From: Escherichia coli
Lineage (GTDB): Bacteria; Pseudomonadota; Gammaproteobacteria; Enterobacterales; Enterobacteriaceae
Assembly: GCF_003334765.1 (NCBI RefSeq)
Contig: NZ_QOWT01000010.1
Direction: 5' to 3' (one strand)
DNA: 64,000 nt
A program made the position numbers and the translations under genes. Positions 9,700 through 16,580 of this stretch are shown here, piece after piece. The number at the start of each line of letters is the position of its first letter. The first letter of the stretch is position 1. The notes under the pieces were generated by a model. That model was given only the letters and a program-made list of their open reading frames with translations. It made no database searches and was not told the origin of the DNA.

Positions 9700-12252
9700 T
9701 CAGAACAATTCCTGTGCCTCGCCATTATCGATAATGGTCGTTCCCACCTCGTGCACTGCCTGTTGTGTCGGCTGCGTACCTTCGATGAAATACTCTTCGC
9801 GGCTGTTGCCACCATTAGCTAACTGCCCGGTGCTGCGATCGATATTCACCGTCACAATACCCGGTGGCGGCGTCAGCGGCTGCTCCGGCACACCTTCAAG
9901 AACGGCTTTCATATAAGCGTCCCATGCAGGCTGGGCACTCTTGGCACCGCCTTCGTAACCTGAGATCTGATCTTTAATCGCTCCGGAAGCCGTTGTATGA
10001 CCGAGATTACGACGGTGATCATCAAAGCCAATCCAGACCGAGGTCACAACGCCCGGACCGTAACCCGAGAACCACGCATCTTTCGAACTGTTAGTGGTCC
10101 CGGTTTTCCCGCCGATATCGCGACGCTGCAAATCACGACCTGCACGCCAGCCAGTACCCTGCCAGCCTGGCTCACCAAAGATATTGGTGTTCAAAGCACT
10201 CTTAATCAGGAATGCCAGCGGAGTGTTGATGACGTGCGGTGCGTACTCCTGCGCGCCAGTCTTCGCCACTAACGCCTGATTTGCCTGCTCCAGCTGCGGC
10301 ATTGGTACAGAAACATTCTGCTGCTCGCGGGAGATAGCGACATCTTCAACATCGTTATTTTCCAGCACGTTCGATTTCTGCGTATCACCGTAAATCACCG
10401 GAATATCGCATTCCGGGCAGGCTACTTTCGGTTTCGCTTCGAAAATCACGCCGCCCTGATCGTTTTCAATTTTGCTGATAAACCACGGGTCCACCAGGAA
10501 GCCGCCGTTCGCCATGACCGCGTAGCCGCGCGCCACCTGCATTGGGGTGAAGGACGCTGAACCCAGCGCCAGCGATTCGGTGTGGACAATGTTTTGTGCC
10601 GGGAAGCCGAAGCGTTGCAGATATTCTGCAGCGTAGTCGACGCCCATCGCCCGCATTGCGCGTACCATCACCACGTTTTTCGACTGACCCAGCCCCTGAC
10701 GTAAGCGAATTGGACCAGCATACTGCGGTGGTGAGTTCTTCGGCTGCCAGTCAGAACCGGCACTTGCATCCCAGCGAGAAATTGGCACATCGTTCAACAT
10801 ACTTGCCAGCGTCAGACCTTTATCCATCGCCGCGGTGTAGAGGAACGGTTTGATGTTGGAACCCACCTGACGCAGTGCCTGGGTGGCGCGGTTAAACTTG
10901 CTCTGATTGAAATCAAAGCCACCGACCAGCGCCATAACGGCACCGTTTTGCGGATTGATCGACACCAGCGCCGAGTTCACTTCCGGCACTTGTGCCAGCC
11001 ACCATGCATCGCCAACCTGACGAACCCAGATTTGCTGACCCGTTTGCAGAACATCGGTCACTTTACGCGGCGTCGGTCCTTGCTGAGTATCCGAACGGTA
11101 AGGACGCGCCCAGCGAACGCCTTCCATACTCAATGCGACGGTCGACCCGTCCGCCAGCATCGCCGTCGCTTGCTGAGGATTGGCGCTGGTGACTGCGGCA
11201 GGCAGCAGCGGACCATAGGTTGGCAGCGCCTTCAGCGTATCGGTAATCTTGTTGTTATCCCACGCCGACTCGCCCACTTTCCACAGCACATTTGCCGGGC
11301 CGCGATAGCCGTGGCGCATGTCGTAGTCCAGCACGTTATTACGTACCGCCTGCTGCGCGGCCTGCTGCACTTTGCGGGTGATGGTGGTGTAAATGCGATA
11401 ACCGTCTTCATAGGCACTTTCGCCATAACGGTTATACATCTCCTGGCGCACCATTTCGCTCAGGTACGGCGCAGAGAAAGCAATCTCCGGCGCGTGATAG
11501 TTAGCGTTAATCGCCTCAGTGCGTGTCTGATCGAACTGTTGTTGGGTGATATACCCTTCATCCAGCATCCGCGACAGCACGACGTTACGCCGCGCGACGG
11601 CACGATCCATCGAGTAGAGCGGGTTGAAGGTGGAAGGCGCTTTCGGCAGCCCGGCTATCACCGCCATTTCGTTCAGCGTCAGTTGGTCGACCGTTTTTCC
11701 GAAATAGACTTGTGCCGCAGCACCGACACCATAGGCGCGGTAACCAAGGTAAATCTTGTTCAGATAAAGCTCGAGGATCTCGTCTTTCGTCAGCAGCTGT
11801 TCAATGCGAATCGCGAGGAAGACTTCCTTAATCTTACGCATCAGCGTGCGTTCTGGACTGAGGAAGAAGTTTCTCGCCAGCTGCTGGGTAATGGTACTTG
11901 CCCCTTGTGACGCGTGACCGGAGAACAGCGCCACGCTTGCTGCACGGAAGATCCCCACCGGGTCAACGCCGTGATGCTCGTAGAAGCGGCTGTCTTCTGT
12001 CGCGATAAAGGCTTTCACCATCTCCGGTGGGATTTGATCCAACGTAACCGGAATACGACGTTTCTCACCGTATTGAGCAATCAGCTCGCCATCGGCGCTG
12101 TAAATCTGCATCGGAATTTGCAGGCGAACATCTTTTAATGTCGCCACATCCGGCAGTTGTGGCTCGATGTAGCGGTATAGGCCATAAATCGAGCCTGCTC
12201 CCAGCAGAATGCAACAGACTGCAAGGATCAAAAAATACTTTACGAACTTCAC
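9700..12252 (-). CDS. mrcA: Penicillin-binding protein 1A (bifunctional glycosyltransferase/transpeptidase)
   Basis: ORF track 858 aa; trimmed to GTG start at 12252 (..KFVKYFLIL..) for 850 aa; glycosyltransferase motifs (EDSRFYEH) and transpeptidase SxxK region present. Confidence 0.9.
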   Translation of the reverse strand: MKFVKYFLILAVCCILLGAGSIYGLYRYIEPQLPDVATLKDVRLQIPMQIYSADGELIAQYGEKRRIPVTLDQIPPEMVKAFIATEDSRFYEHHGVDPVGIFRAASVALFSGHASQGASTITQQLARNFFLSPERTLMRKIKEVFLAIRIEQLLTKDEILELYLNKIYLGYRAYGVGAAAQVYFGKTVDQLTLNEMAVIAGLPKAPSTFNPLYSMDRAVARRNVVLSRMLDEGYITQQQFDQTRTEAINANYHAPEIAFSAPYLSEMVRQEMYNRYGESAYEDGYRIYTTITRKVQQAAQQAVRNNVLDYDMRHGYRGPANVLWKVGESAWDNNKITDTLKALPTYGPLLPAAVTSANPQQATAMLADGSTVALSMEGVRWARPYRSDTQQGPTPRKVTDVLQTGQQIWVRQVGDAWWLAQVPEVNSALVSINPQNGAVMALVGGFDFNQSKFNRATQALRQVGSNIKPFLYTAAMDKGLTLASMLNDVPISRWDASAGSDWQPKNSPPQYAGPIRLRQGLGQSKNVVMVRAMRAMGVDYAAEYLQRFGFPAQNIVHTESLALGSASFTPMQVARGYAVMANGGFLVDPWFISKIENDQGGVIFEAKPKVACPECDIPVIYGDTQKSNVLENNDVEDVAISREQQNVSVPMPQLEQANQALVAKTGAQEYAPHVINTPLAFLIKSALNTNIFGEPGWQGTGWRAGRDLQRRDIGGKTGTTNSSKDAWFSGYGPGVVTSVWIGFDDHRRNLGHTTASGAIKDQISGYEGGAKSAQPAWDAYMKAVLEGVPEQPLTPPPGIVTVNIDRSTGQLANGGNSREEYFIEGTQPTQQAVHEVGTTIIDNGEAQELF

Positions 12253-12371
12253 TGGAAATTTCCCATTTAGTTTCATTTGGGCAGTTTATAAACAAACGCG
12301 CGGTAGTATAAAGGCAAGCCAGACGCATTGATATACCCGTCAGAGTGACGGGTGATAAGGAGATCATCACA

Positions 12372-13151
12372 ATGGCATTTAAGATCTGGCAAATTGGTTT
12401 GCATTTACAACAGCAAGAAGCGGTAGCGGTTGCGATCGTGCGGGGCGCAAAAGAATGCTTTTTGCAACGCTGGTGGCGGTTGCCGCTGGAGAACGACATT
12501 ATCAAAGATGGGCGGATTGTTGATGCGCAGCAGCTGGCTAAAACGTTGTTACCGTGGAGTCGCGAACTGCCGCAGCGTCATCACATTATGTTGGCGTTTC
12601 CCGCCAGTCGCACATTACAGCGGTCATTTCCGCGCCCGTCGATGTCCCTTGGTGAGCGGGAGCAAACGGCCTGGCTGTCAGGGACGATGGCCCGCGAGCT
12701 GGATATGGATCCGGACTCCCTGCGCTTCGATTACAGCGAAGACTCACTCAGTCCCGCCTATAACGTGACTGCCGCGCAAAGCAAAGAGCTGGCAACGCTG
12801 CTTACTCTGGCAGAAAGGTTGCGTGTTCATGTGAGCGCGATCACCCCGGATGCCAGTGCATTACAGCGATTCCTGCCTTTTTTACCTTCTCATCAGCAAT
12901 GTCTGGCCTGGCGTGATAACGAACAGTGGCTGTGGGCGACGCGCTATAGCTGGGGGCGCAAACTGGCGGTGGGGATGACTAGCGCGAAGGAGCTGGCGGC
13001 AGCGTTATCCGTTGATCCCGAAAGCGTCGCGATATGTGGCGAAGGCGGATTTGATCCCTGGGAGGCCGTTTCTGTTCGTCAGCCGCCGCTACCGCCGCCA
13101 GGTGGAGACTTTGCCATCGCGCTGGGGCTGGCGCTTGGGAAGGCGTACTGA
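12372..13151 (+). CDS. hofM: Type IV pilus/DNA-uptake assembly protein, PilM-like
   Basis: ORF track 268 aa; trimmed to MAFKIWQIGL start (259 aa); first of five tightly packed or overlapping genes. Confidence 0.85.
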   Translation: MAFKIWQIGLHLQQQEAVAVAIVRGAKECFLQRWWRLPLENDIIKDGRIVDAQQLAKTLLPWSRELPQRHHIMLAFPASRTLQRSFPRPSMSLGEREQTAWLSGTMARELDMDPDSLRFDYSEDSLSPAYNVTAAQSKELATLLTLAERLRVHVSAITPDASALQRFLPFLPSHQQCLAWRDNEQWLWATRYSWGRKLAVGMTSAKELAAALSVDPESVAICGEGGFDPWEAVSVRQPPLPPPGGDFAIALGLALGKAY

Positions 13152-13690
13152 TGAACCCGCCAATTAATTTTTTGCCCTGGCGACAGCAACGCCGGACCGC
13201 TTTTCTGCGTTTCTGGTTGCTGATGTTCGTTGCGCCTCTGCTGCTGGCCGTCGGGATAACGCTAATACTGCGTCTGACAGGCAGCGCCGAAGCGCGCATA
13301 GACGCAGTTTTGCTTCAGGCGGAACAACAACTCGCCCGCAGCTTACAGATAACGAAGCCACGTTTGCTGGAGCAACAGCAGTTACGCGAACAGCGTTCGC
13401 AACGGCAGCGCCAGCGACAATTTACCCGCGACTGGCAATCTGCGCTGGAAGCACTGGCGGCGCTTTTACCCGAGCACGCCTGGCTGACAACGATAAGCTG
13501 GCAGCAGGGAACGCTGGAGATCAAGGGGCTGACAACAAGCATTACCGCGTTAAACGCACTAGAAACGTCACTCCGCCAGGATGCATCTTTTCATCTCAAT
13601 CAGCGGGGAGCCACGCAGCAGGATGCGCAGGGACGCTGGCAATTTGAGTATCAGTTAACAAGGAAGGTTAGCGATGAACATGTTCTTTGA
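13151..13690 (+). CDS. hofN: PilN-like DNA-uptake/pilus assembly protein
   Basis: 179 aa; start overlaps the hofM stop (ATGA); single N-terminal TM helix. Confidence 0.85.
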   Translation: MNPPINFLPWRQQRRTAFLRFWLLMFVAPLLLAVGITLILRLTGSAEARIDAVLLQAEQQLARSLQITKPRLLEQQQLREQRSQRQRQRQFTRDWQSALEALAALLPEHAWLTTISWQQGTLEIKGLTTSITALNALETSLRQDASFHLNQRGATQQDAQGRWQFEYQLTRKVSDEHVL

Positions 13691-14114
13691 CTGGTGGTTC
13701 GCCACATCACCCCGCCTCCGCCAGCTTTGCTGGGCATTCTGGTTGCTGATGTTAGTTACGCTCATTTTTCTGTCATCGACACACCATGAAGAGCGCGACG
13801 CATTAATTCGACTACGGGCAAGTCATCACCAGCAGTGGGCCGCACTGTATCGCCTGGTAGACACCACTCCCTTCAGCGAGGAAAAAACGCTGCCCTTTTC
13901 GCCACTGGATTTTCAGTTATCCGGCGCGCAACTGGTTTCCTGGCATCCATCCGCGCAGGGAGGCGAGTTGGCGTTGAAAACGCTGTGGGAAGCAGTGCCG
14001 TCGGCATTTACACGGCTGGCAGAGCGCAACGTCAGCGTGAGCCGTTTTTCGTTAAGCGTGGAAGGTGATGATCTTTTGTTCACGCTACAACTGGAGACGC
14101 CGCATGAGGGTTAA
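13674..14114 (+). CDS. hofO: PilO-like DNA-uptake/pilus assembly protein
   Basis: 146 aa; overlaps the hofN 3' end; N-terminal TM helix. Confidence 0.8.
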   Translation: MNMFFDWWFATSPRLRQLCWAFWLLMLVTLIFLSSTHHEERDALIRLRASHHQQWAALYRLVDTTPFSEEKTLPFSPLDFQLSGAQLVSWHPSAQGGELALKTLWEAVPSAFTRLAERNVSVSRFSLSVEGDDLLFTLQLETPHEG

Positions 14115-14508
14115 ACGCTGGTTGTTGGCAGGTATTGCATTGTGCCTTTTAACCGGTATGCGTGACCCTTTTAAACCGCCGGAAGATCTATGCCGGATTA
14201 GCGAACTTAGCCAGTGGCGCTATCAGGGGATGGTAGGGCGAGGCGAGCGCATCATCGGTGTAATAAAAGACGGGCAAAAGAAATGGCGACGGGTGCAGCA
14301 AAACGATGTGCTGGAAAACGGCTGGACAATTTTACAGCTGACGCCAGACGTACTAACGCTGGGTACCGGGACAAACTGCGAACCGCCACAATGGTTGTGG
14401 CAACGGCAAGGAGATACAAATGAAGCAATGGATAGCCGCACTACTGTTGATGCTGATACCCGGCGTACAGGCGGCAAAGCCGCAAAAAGTGACGCTGATG
14501 GTGGATGA
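14104..14508 (+). CDS. hofP: PilP-like lipoprotein
   Basis: ORF track 147 aa; trimmed to MRVKRWLLAGIALCLLTG-C start (134 aa) with lipoprotein-type signal peptide. Confidence 0.8.
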   Translation: MRVKRWLLAGIALCLLTGMRDPFKPPEDLCRISELSQWRYQGMVGRGERIIGVIKDGQKKWRRVQQNDVLENGWTILQLTPDVLTLGTGTNCEPPQWLWQRQGDTNEAMDSRTTVDADTRRTGGKAAKSDADGG

Positions 14509-15658
14509 CGTTCCGGTAGCTCAGGTGTTGCAGGCGCTGGCTGAACAGGAGAAGTTGAACCTGGTCGTGTCGCCAGACGTCAGCGGTACGGTGTCGTTAC
14601 ATCTAACAGATGTTCCCTGGAAGCAGGCACTACAAACTGTAGTGAAAAGCGCCGGACTGATAACGCGGCAGGAAGGCAACATTCTCTCAGTGCATTCCAT
14701 TGCCTGGCAGAATAACAATATCGCCCGCCAGGAGGCGGAGCAGGCGCGGGCGCAGGCAAATCTGCCGCTGGAAAATCGCAGTATAACCCTGCAATACGCC
14801 GACGCGGGAGAACTGGCGAAAGCGGGGGAGAAGCTACTGAGTGCCAAAGGGAGTATGACCGTCGATAAACGCACCAATCGCCTTTTGCTACGAGATAACA
14901 AAACGGCGTTAAGCGCGCTTGAACAGTGGGTAGCGCAAATGGATCTGCCGGTCGGGCAGGTTGAGCTGTCGGCGCATATTGTCACCATTAATGAAAAAAG
15001 TTTGCGTGAGTTAGGCGTGAAATGGACGCTGGCCGATGCGCAACACGCTGGTGGCGTTGGGCAAGTCACCACGCTTGGTAGCGACCTCTCCGTAGCGACG
15101 GCGACAACGCATGTCGGTTTTAACATTGGGCGCATCAACGGACGCTTGCTGGATCTTGAGCTTTCCGCGCTCGAACAAAAACAGCAGCTGGATATTATCG
15201 CCAGTCCGCGTCTGCTGGCCTCACATCTTCAGCCTGCCAGCATTAAACAGGGGAGCGAAATTCCATATCAGGTTTCCAGCGGGGAAAGTGGCGCGACGTC
15301 GGTGGAATTTAAAGAGGCCGTCCTGGGGATGGAGGTCACGCCCACGGTGTTACAAAAAGGTCGCATCCGGCTGAAATTACACATCAGCCAGAACGTTCCG
15401 GGGCAGGTGCTACAGCAGGCCGATGGCGAAGTGCTGGCGATTGATAAGCAGGAGATCGAAACGCAGGTCGAGGTCAAAAGCGGAGAAACGTTGGCGCTGG
15501 GCGGCATTTTTACCCGTAAAAATAAATCGGGTCAGGATAGCGTACCGTTGCTTGGCGACATTCCCTGGTTCGGGCAATTATTTCGTCATGACGGAAAAGA
15601 AGATGAACGACGCGAGTTAGTGGTGTTTATCACGCCACGACTGGTTTCCAGTGAGTAA
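14420..15658 (+). CDS. hofQ: Outer-membrane secretin, PilQ/ComE-like
   Basis: 412 aa; signal peptide MKQWIAALLLMLIPGVQA; secretin C-terminal domain; overlaps hofP by 89 nt in another frame. Confidence 0.9.
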   Translation: MKQWIAALLLMLIPGVQAAKPQKVTLMVDDVPVAQVLQALAEQEKLNLVVSPDVSGTVSLHLTDVPWKQALQTVVKSAGLITRQEGNILSVHSIAWQNNNIARQEAEQARAQANLPLENRSITLQYADAGELAKAGEKLLSAKGSMTVDKRTNRLLLRDNKTALSALEQWVAQMDLPVGQVELSAHIVTINEKSLRELGVKWTLADAQHAGGVGQVTTLGSDLSVATATTHVGFNIGRINGRLLDLELSALEQKQQLDIIASPRLLASHLQPASIKQGSEIPYQVSSGESGATSVEFKEAVLGMEVTPTVLQKGRIRLKLHISQNVPGQVLQQADGEVLAIDKQEIETQVEVKSGETLALGGIFTRKNKSGQDSVPLLGDIPWFGQLFRHDGKEDERRELVVFITPRLVSSE

Positions 15659-16058
15659 ACAGCCGTAAAAGCGGTAATGTTTTTACGCTGAACGTGTTTC
15701 ATCTATTTGACGCGCGCAGGTATTTAGCATACAAGGAGTACCGATTTGAGAGTTGGTGCTCTTCGCTGCCTGCGTTCCATGATGATGATTTATCATTCAG
15801 GCGGCATTTTGCTGTCTTTTTTACGCTAATCTTACCCGGTGATTTATCGCCAGAGCGGTGGTAGCAAGGCAGCGCGCTTGCAGCGACCAGATATGCAGAG
15901 GGATGGGTGATTTATTCAGTTGCCAAACCCGCTGGAGTATTGAGATAATTTTCAGTCTGACTCTCGCAATATCTTATGAGGTTTCAGTTCATGTCCTGCG
16001 GCGCTCTCTGAGCGAAGCGGGTTTATCATTAACGAATAGTCTTAGTAGTACCGAAAAA

Positions 16059-16580
16059 ATGGCAGAGAAACGCAATATCTTTCTGGTTGGGCCTATGGGT
16101 GCCGGAAAAAGCACTATTGGGCGCCAGTTAGCTCAACAACTCAATATGGAATTTTACGATTCCGATCAAGAGATTGAGAAACGAACCGGAGCTGATGTGG
16201 GCTGGGTTTTCGATTTAGAAGGCGAAGAAGGCTTCCGCGATCGCGAAGAAAAGGTCATCAATGAGTTGACCGAGAAACAGGGTATTGTGCTGGCTACTGG
16301 CGGCGGCTCTGTGAAATCCCGTGAAACGCGTAACCGTCTTTCCGCTCGTGGCGTTGTCGTTTATCTTGAAACGACCATCGAAAAGCAACTTGCACGCACG
16401 CAGCGTGATAAAAAACGCCCGTTGCTGCACGTTGAAACACCGCCGCGTGAAGTTCTGGAAGCGTTGGCCAATGAACGCAATCCGCTGTATGAAGAGATTG
16501 CCGACGTGACCATTCGTACTGATGATCAAAGCGCTAAAGTGGTTGCAAACCAGATTATTCACATGCTGGAAAGCAACTAA
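16059..16580 (+). CDS. aroK: Shikimate kinase I
   Basis: ORF track 240 aa with a long in-frame leader; trimmed to [19 protein letters not shown] (173 aa); Walker A present. Confidence 0.88.

Follow-up and report, generated by a model that had tools for sequence, protein, structure and literature searches.

The hofMNOPQ cluster at positions 12372-15658 of a 64,000-nucleotide (nt) stretch of Escherichia coli DNA (contig NZ_QOWT01000010.1, the whole of which is referred to as the window) is very probably the enterobacterial counterpart of pilMNOPQ and of Haemophilus influenzae comABCDE, with HofQ starting at position 14420 and with an 89-nt hofP/hofQ overlap that needs no special mechanism. Published work already covers the locus, its pilMNOPQ/comABCDE homology, its control through Sxy and CRP-S and the part that hofQ plays in DNA uptake. 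Beyond annotation hygiene the present results carry little weight, and their useful outcome is negative: the overlap would signal neither a misannotated start nor a hidden mechanism, and is to be expected from the protein sequence of HofQ, given that hofP has no stop codon at the junction.

Gene layout

The window derives from the E. coli chromosome. Every one of the 5426 complete RefSeq genomes of E. coli contains a match to positions 12000-16000, many at 100% identity, and in a 100%-identical E. coli chromosome the RefSeq annotation has these five genes with identical boundaries. The same search returned 5429 places in total, one of which is on a plasmid-class record, and one genome has two places. 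The five genes are as follows, each with its reading frame supported by translation and by RefSeq.

12372-13151, + strand: hofM, 259 amino acids, frame uninterrupted
13151-13690, + strand: hofN, 179 amino acids, frame uninterrupted
13674-14114, + strand: hofO, 146 amino acids, frame uninterrupted
14104-14508, + strand: hofP, 134 amino acids, frame uninterrupted
14420-15658, + strand: hofQ, 412 amino acids, frame uninterrupted

In agreement with an earlier note on this DNA, all five frames, including that of the 412-residue secretin, are intact in the window, and the 17-nt hofN/hofO and 89-nt hofP/hofQ overlaps have the lengths given there. The shared ATGA described in that note at the hofM/hofN junction is a misreading. 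The motif is TGATG, in which the hofM stop TGA (13149-13151) and the hofN ATG (13151-13153) overlap by 1 nt. An 11-nt overlap between hofO and hofP, absent from the earlier note, completes the set of junctions.

Protein identities

Based on its matches to family models, HofQ is assigned as an outer-membrane secretin of the PilQ type. It scores 855 bits against NCBIfam NF007851 (HofQ, cut-off 598) and 449 bits against TIGR02515 (PilQ, cut-off 284); the score against the GspD model, 194 bits, is below the cut-off of 351. The Pfam domains found are STN (N0, residues 46-89), Secretin_N (N1, 120-180) and Secretin (250-409), with no AMIN domain. The closest solved secretin is the competence-pilus secretin PilQ of Vibrio cholerae (6w6m), which aligns with HofQ residues 23-409 (E-value 2e-74), and the periplasmic domains of Aggregatibacter actinomycetemcomitans HofQ (2y3m) align with residues 27-182. 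A Sec signal peptide, judged by inspection, precedes these domains, and its n-h-c organisation is kept in 34 of the 34 loci compared.

14420-14473, + strand: HofQ Sec signal peptide, MKQWIAALLLMLIPGVQA, predicted cleavage before AKPQ

HofM and HofP, being too diverged for the PilM and PilP sequence models, were modelled with AlphaFold2 (AF2) from alignments of enterobacterial orthologues. The HofM model (predicted local distance difference test score, pLDDT, 90.8) finds PilM of Pseudomonas aeruginosa (5eq6/5eoy, E-value 8e-14) as its best folds in a Foldseek search of the PDB, followed by PilM of Thermus thermophilus (2ych, 3e-11) and by cyto-EpsL/GspL (~5e-11). In addition, the HofM family profile matches PilM of Myxococcus xanthus (E-value 3.4e-5). 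These results support a cytoplasmic PilM-like protein with a predicted actin-like (FtsA/PilM) fold. HofN matches the Pfam PilN family (PF05137, E-value 3.1e-9). Its N-terminus carries the sequence N6-x-L-P-W-R, in which, among 78 enterobacterial sequences, N6, W10 and R11 never vary and conservation of L8 and P9 is 90% or more; it is followed by the hydrophobic stretch FLRFWLLMFVAPLLLAVGITLIL, a predicted single N-terminal transmembrane segment. An N-terminal peptide of this type is the PilM-binding motif of the solved PilM:PilN complexes (structures 2ych and 5eou). The family match and the layout of the sequence support HofN as a predicted PilN-like bitopic inner-membrane protein. HofO matches the Pfam family PF25319 ("HofO EspM-like domain", E-value 2e-25), and Pfam PilO is not matched; this family assignment points to a putative PilO/EpsM-like protein.

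In HofP, the part that is conserved is confined to the first 105 residues.

14104-14418, + strand: hofP conserved part, residues 1-105, signal sequence and PilP/GspC-type beta domain

HofP matches the Pfam HofP family (PF10748, E-value 4e-80), and Pfam PilP is not matched. By sequence, the first match of the HofP profile to M. xanthus PilP has an E-value of 0.018. The core of the AF2 model (residues 30-103) has a pLDDT of ~90, and its top Foldseek matches are almost all either PilP from three species or the HR domain of GspC/LspC from the type II secretion system; they include 3jc8_Pa at 2.5e-4, 2ivw, 2lc4, 4av2_M and 2y4x/2y4y for the former, and 3oss_C and 7oio for the latter. The model supports a core that is a candidate HR-type beta domain, the type that docks on secretin N0. 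No lipobox cysteine is conserved in the signal region in the alignment of enterobacterial orthologues. Two other cysteines, C30 and C92, are invariant, which suggests that they may form a periplasmic disulfide. Directly after the signal region, a R20-D-P22-F23 motif is nearly invariant.

Annotation, family models and predicted folds together support the proposal of the earlier note that hofMNOPQ encodes a PilMNOPQ-like secretin and alignment module. Weighing against this assignment, HofM, HofO and HofP miss the sequence thresholds of the PilM, PilO and PilP families (HofM reaches 16.1 bits on the TIGR01175 PilM model against a cut-off of 133, and an E-value of 0.047 on Pfam PilM_2), so that for these three proteins it rests on fold, weak profile matches and gene order. 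In NCBIfam, HofN, HofO and HofP have no matches. In the proposed arrangement, cytoplasmic HofM, bitopic inner-membrane HofN and HofO and periplasmic HofP would form an alignment subcomplex which, with the HofQ secretin, would span the envelope and serve the chromosomal type IVa pilus/DNA-uptake machine.

Origin of the hofP/hofQ overlap

The 89-nt overlap is real, and it looks like a passive by-product of sequence. Conservation of HofP stops at the motif W97-x-W99-x-R-x-G103, and the remainder of the gene runs through the start of hofQ.

14419-14508, + strand: hofP tail, residues 106-134, the hofP frame through the hofQ start (overlap 14420-14508)
14506-14508, + strand: hofP stop TGA, formed by the hofQ codons GAT-GAC (Asp29-Asp30)

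The two aspartates that supply the stop lie within the highly conserved V-D-D-V-P-V strand of HofQ. To locate the stop in the hofP frame that the HofQ protein would give by itself, the HofQ protein sequence was held fixed and its synonymous codons were redrawn 20,000 times. An overlap of 89 nt was the commonest outcome (43% of the draws); 87% of the draws gave at least 86 nt, and none gave less than 59 nt. Among the hydrophobic codons of the HofQ signal peptide there are only three places for an out-of-frame stop. The earlier note had called the overlap unusually long, a description that does not hold up: its length is the modal outcome of the HofQ amino-acid sequence, and overlaps of 77-98 nt are present in 61 of 74 enterobacterial loci. 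The extremes of the overlap in these 74 loci are 4 and 140 nt, and 34 loci have exactly 89 nt; in several genera it is only 4, 38 or 59-62 nt.

The proposed sequence of events is simple. The conserved HofP domain would end at about the hofQ start codon, where hofP has no stop, and ribosomes would continue in the hofP frame across the signal-peptide codons of hofQ. Since these codons specify hydrophobic residues, they would rarely be able to form out-of-frame stops, and hofP translation would end at the TGA made by the conserved Asp29-Asp30 codons. The length of 89 nt would thus arise because hofP, lacking a stop before hofQ, runs to the first out-of-frame TGA. The 29 residues that HofP gains in this way probably form a disordered appendage that the protein can do without: in conservation the tail ranks lowest among the parts of HofP (column identity 0.38), and residues 110-134 are predicted to be disordered, with an AF2 pLDDT below 50.

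The alternative that survives best is that the long overlap is selected, either because the HofP tail is functional, for example in contacting HofQ or DNA, or because the passage of hofP-translating ribosomes over the hofQ ribosome-binding site tunes the HofP:HofQ ratio. In its favour are the retention of a 77-98-nt overlap in 61 of 74 loci, a Pfam HofP model that reaches the last HofP residue, and a reduction of about 13% in diversity at the wobble positions of hofQ within the overlap. The last of these also weighs against a purely passive origin: hofQ wobble diversity is 0.436 in the overlap and 0.499 elsewhere in the gene, a deficit with p ~0.04 by codon resampling; 9% of contiguous windows are equally low. 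The hofP frame may therefore impose a weak dual-frame constraint on hofQ within the overlap. Several results argue against selection of the overlap as such. Its retention is predicted from the HofQ amino-acid sequence alone. When diversity within the overlap is resolved by codon phase in the 34 loci that share the 89-nt length, it is lowest at the wobble positions of hofP (0.315) and highest at those of hofQ (0.436), the opposite of what is expected under constraint on HofP; the diversity pattern in the overlap is a hofQ-frame pattern. The HofP tail is unconserved except where hofQ is conserved, in addition to its predicted disorder, and Leclercia, Phytobacter, Kosakonia, Raoultella and others lack it or have a shorter one. 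Finally, the hofQ ribosome-binding site is not sequestered in the predicted mRNA fold. Selection of the overlap is judged unlikely on these grounds, and it is quite unlikely that the tail or the passage of hofP-translating ribosomes over the hofQ ribosome-binding site has a real role, whether in HofP:HofQ stoichiometry or in a lineage-variable contact with HofQ or DNA.

Two candidate mechanisms were set aside. Selection on the HofP tail is unsupported by phase-specific diversity, conservation, the AF2 model and length variation, with the weak wobble-site deficit remaining. An mRNA structure that would couple hofQ initiation to hofP translation was not found at the hofQ start, where the predicted fold has a z-score of -0.71 and both the Shine-Dalgarno sequence and the AUG are unpaired.

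Selection and lesions

To assess constraint, the locus was taken from 80 species-representative Enterobacteriaceae genomes, and the ratio of nonsynonymous to synonymous divergence (dN/dS) was calculated between E. coli and other Escherichia with the gene overlaps trimmed. The five-gene order is present throughout the 80 loci, and in 67 of them none of the five genes departs from normal length; of the other 13 loci, 8 are merely cut. The dN/dS values are 0.08-0.10 for hofM, 0.13-0.19 for hofN, 0.16-0.24 for hofO, 0.09-0.25 for hofP and 0.02-0.03 for hofQ, compared with 0.02-0.08 for the neighbouring aroK, aroB and mrcA. All five hof genes are under purifying selection, as the earlier note had proposed: every ratio is far below 1, hofQ is as constrained as its housekeeping neighbours, and hofMNOP are several-fold more relaxed. 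Within Escherichia, synonymous divergence (dS) in the hof genes often clearly exceeds that of their neighbours; against one Escherichia locus (L002), hofQ has a dS of 0.41, mrcA of 0.17 and aroK of 0.03. Such an elevation could stem from weak codon bias or from recombination.

Lesions are present in other strains. Within E. coli they were looked for in an evenly spaced sample of 40 chromosomes and with one allele-specific search. Three of the 40 carry a 1-nt deletion in a G run of hofM (window positions 13124-13127, CTGGGGCT to CTGGGCT), located 8 codons before the hofM stop; in the one record of the three that was opened, RefSeq flags hofM as frameshifted. The exact 70-nt frameshift allele is present in 288 of 5373 E. 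coli records (~5%), including O157:H7. It exchanges the last 7 HofM residues, among them the invariant L253 and A254, for a different extension that runs into hofN. In E. coli 2013C-3492 (one of the 40), HofN has an in-frame deletion of 21 residues that removes the predicted transmembrane segment, which is probably an inactivating lesion, and the operon is otherwise intact. In E. coli CNR20180903 (one of the 40, with a chromosome of 4.28 Mb), hofQ breaks off soon after its start and runs into a truncated barA, a junction that points to a large deletion or rearrangement in a reduced genome. The type strain of Escherichia albertii, NBRC 107761, has in-frame stops in hofO (codon 70) and hofP (codon 34) with an intact hofQ at 97% identity, and in Citrobacter koseri NCTC10786 hofM, hofN and hofQ are frameshifted. 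Three more loci of the enterobacterial set (L013, L028 and L075) also carry lesions.

As these lineage-specific lesions show, some backgrounds can do without the operon, which counts against the main reading. Together with the very low expression of the genes in the absence of Sxy (PMC1635313), they would favour the reading of the operon as a decaying relic without function in E. coli. That reading is nonetheless very improbable. It is at odds with dN/dS values far below 1 in all five genes, with a hofQ as constrained as housekeeping genes and with five normal-length genes in 67 of 80 loci, where 8 of the remaining 13 are merely cut. It is also at odds with experiment: Sxy-induced DNA uptake is abolished in a hofQ::kan mutant (Sinha and Redfield, PMC3330819), and a hofQ mutant of uropathogenic E. 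coli has a defect in kidney colonisation (PMC2649431). In practice the lesions, notably the hofM frameshift of the O157:H7 type, are relevant when such strains are used for work on type IV pili or DNA uptake.

The HofQ start

The annotated start of HofQ at ATG 14420 is correct as judged from the reading frame, its ribosome-binding site and its conservation. Upstream of 14420 the hofQ frame is open for 21 codons, none of which is ATG, GTG or TTG, so that 14420 is the earliest possible start. It is preceded at close range by a Shine-Dalgarno sequence.

14408-14413, + strand: hofQ Shine-Dalgarno sequence AAGGAG, 6 nt before the ATG, within the HofP codons Q-G-D

Either AAGGAG or GAAGGA is kept at this place across genera, and the start position and signal-peptide organisation recur in genera in which the signal-peptide sequence itself has completely diverged. 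The solved HofQ and PilQ domains align from HofQ residues 23-27 onward; what the overlap encodes of HofQ is thus limited to the signal peptide, a short linker and the first N0 residues. Later in-frame starts within the first 37 codons are TTG10, ATG11, GTG24, ATG27, GTG28, GTG36 and TTG37, and use of ATG11 or ATG27 would leave a residual overlap of 59 or 11 nt, respectively. The earlier note suspected that initiation at a downstream codon might shorten or remove the overlap; this suspicion is not borne out, as 14420 is the first possible start and the later ones would delete or cripple the signal peptide. On the opposing side, a search for published mapping of HofQ initiation or for the N-terminus of mature HofQ found none. 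That the start is misannotated is highly improbable, despite these seven alternative codons: only starts from codon 36 onward would remove the overlap, and these delete the entire signal peptide that a secretin needs for export; ATG11 would strip the charged n-region and still leave 59 nt; and the first ATG, served by a strong AAGGAG at the ideal 6-nt spacing, is conserved with its signal peptide across genera. A downstream start is effectively excluded by this sequence evidence.

Promoter, regulation and function

The published promoter fragment of hofM lies upstream of the cluster, within the divergently transcribed mrcA.

12098-12221, + strand: CRP-bound promoter fragment of hofM (formerly yrfD), within the coding sequence of divergent mrcA, placed by the electrophoretic mobility shift assay (EMSA) primers of PMC1635313
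12104-12125, + strand: tentative distal CRP-S site, core TGCAT-N6-TTGCA at 12107-12122, 3 mismatches to TGCGA-N6-TCGCA; its position agrees with the published -246
12185-12206, + strand: tentative proximal CRP-S site, core ATCGA-N6-TCCCA at 12188-12203, 3 mismatches, at the other end of the EMSA fragment, inferred
12357-12362, + strand: hofM Shine-Dalgarno sequence AAGGAG, 9 nt before the ATG, read from the sequence

The EMSA primers map to 12098-12117 (yrfDF) and 12200-12221 (yrfDR) in the window. Cameron and Redfield (PMC1635313) predicted a weak CRP-S site at either end of this fragment, one of them at -246 from the start codon, and found that CRP binds the fragment weakly in an EMSA. In the same study, Sxy induces hofM 16-fold in a manner dependent on CRP and cAMP. 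The exact positions of the CRP-S sites given here are tentative, and a consensus scan of the window does not tell them from chance, as 3-mismatch matches (289 observed vs 336 expected) are not enriched. In the proposed scheme, transcription of the operon would begin at a weak CRP-S promoter, located within divergent mrcA, that fires only when both Sxy and cAMP-CRP are present; because both are needed, the operon would be silent in ordinary laboratory culture.

The label "cryptic" used in the earlier note is outdated in view of the 16-fold induction of hofM by Sxy and CRP (PMC1635313) and the requirement for hofQ in Sxy-induced uptake (PMC3330819). For DNA uptake by E. coli to be seen, sxy had to be expressed by force and a recombineering read-out used, and natural transformation of E. 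coli was not observed under any tested condition (PMC3330819). A 12-gene plasmid for the expression of PpdD pili in E. coli includes a hofM-hofQ fragment (bioRxiv 10.1101/856302). The proposal that DNA serves as a nutrient (Palchevskiy and Finkel 2006) is cited in PMC9273947.

Several observations concern the flanks. An Rfam scan of 11900-16200 gave only a 26-nt match, far below threshold, to asponA, the RNA antisense to ponA/mrcA (14.7 bits vs a gathering score of 113, E-value 0.34). This match, at 12098-12123 on the + strand, lies where the published promoter fragment of hofM begins, and it is probably mere coding-sequence similarity. Transcripts of hofM begin antisense to the 5' end of mrcA. 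Downstream, the spacer between hofQ and aroK (15659-16058) is long, at 400 nt. Weak hairpins of terminator type lie at 15662-15675 and 15799-15817, and a sequence resembling a promoter (TTGCCA-18-GATAAT with TG) occupies 15920-15949. These elements presumably serve hofQ termination and the aroK promoters.

Comparison with known systems

The closest comparison is E. coli K-12, in which hofMNOPQ (formerly yrfDCBA-hofQ) occupies the same locus with the gene boundaries given by RefSeq, and to whose K-12-like strains the window is ~100% identical. The flanks are also the same, with mrcA divergent upstream and aroK-aroB downstream. The window thus holds a near-identical allele with nothing of substance that differs from K-12.

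The pilMNOPQ operons of the type IVa pilus in P. aeruginosa and M. xanthus have the same five-gene order as hofMNOPQ, and share with it the PilM fold, the PilN domain with its N-terminal motif, the PilP-type beta domain and the PilQ secretin. The ponA-pilMNOPQ-aroK-aroB neighbourhood of P. aeruginosa is likewise shared with the hof locus. Several differences accompany these likenesses. HofM is ~95 residues shorter than PilM and near cyto-GspL in size. HofQ lacks the N-terminal AMIN domains of the longer PilQ proteins and aligns only to residues 322-737 of Neisseria meningitidis PilQ. HofP, unlike the lipoprotein PilP, has no conserved lipobox cysteine and has its two invariant cysteines instead.

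For comABCDE of H. influenzae and pilMNOPQ of V. cholerae, orthology to the hof genes and CRP-S/Sxy regulation have been reported, with two predicted CRP-S sites in Enterobacteriaceae rather than one (Cameron and Redfield, PMC1635313). E. coli differs from these competence modules in that it shows no natural transformation under the conditions tested (PMC3330819). The type II secretion system has homologous parts, in that HofM resembles cyto-EpsL/GspL, the HofO domain is named EspM-like, the HofP core resembles the GspC HR domain and HofQ resembles GspD. However, HofQ scores far better on the HofQ and PilQ models (855 and 449 bits) than on that of GspD (194 bits, cut-off 351), and HofM and HofN are two proteins, in the manner of pilus systems, whereas type II GspL has them fused into one.

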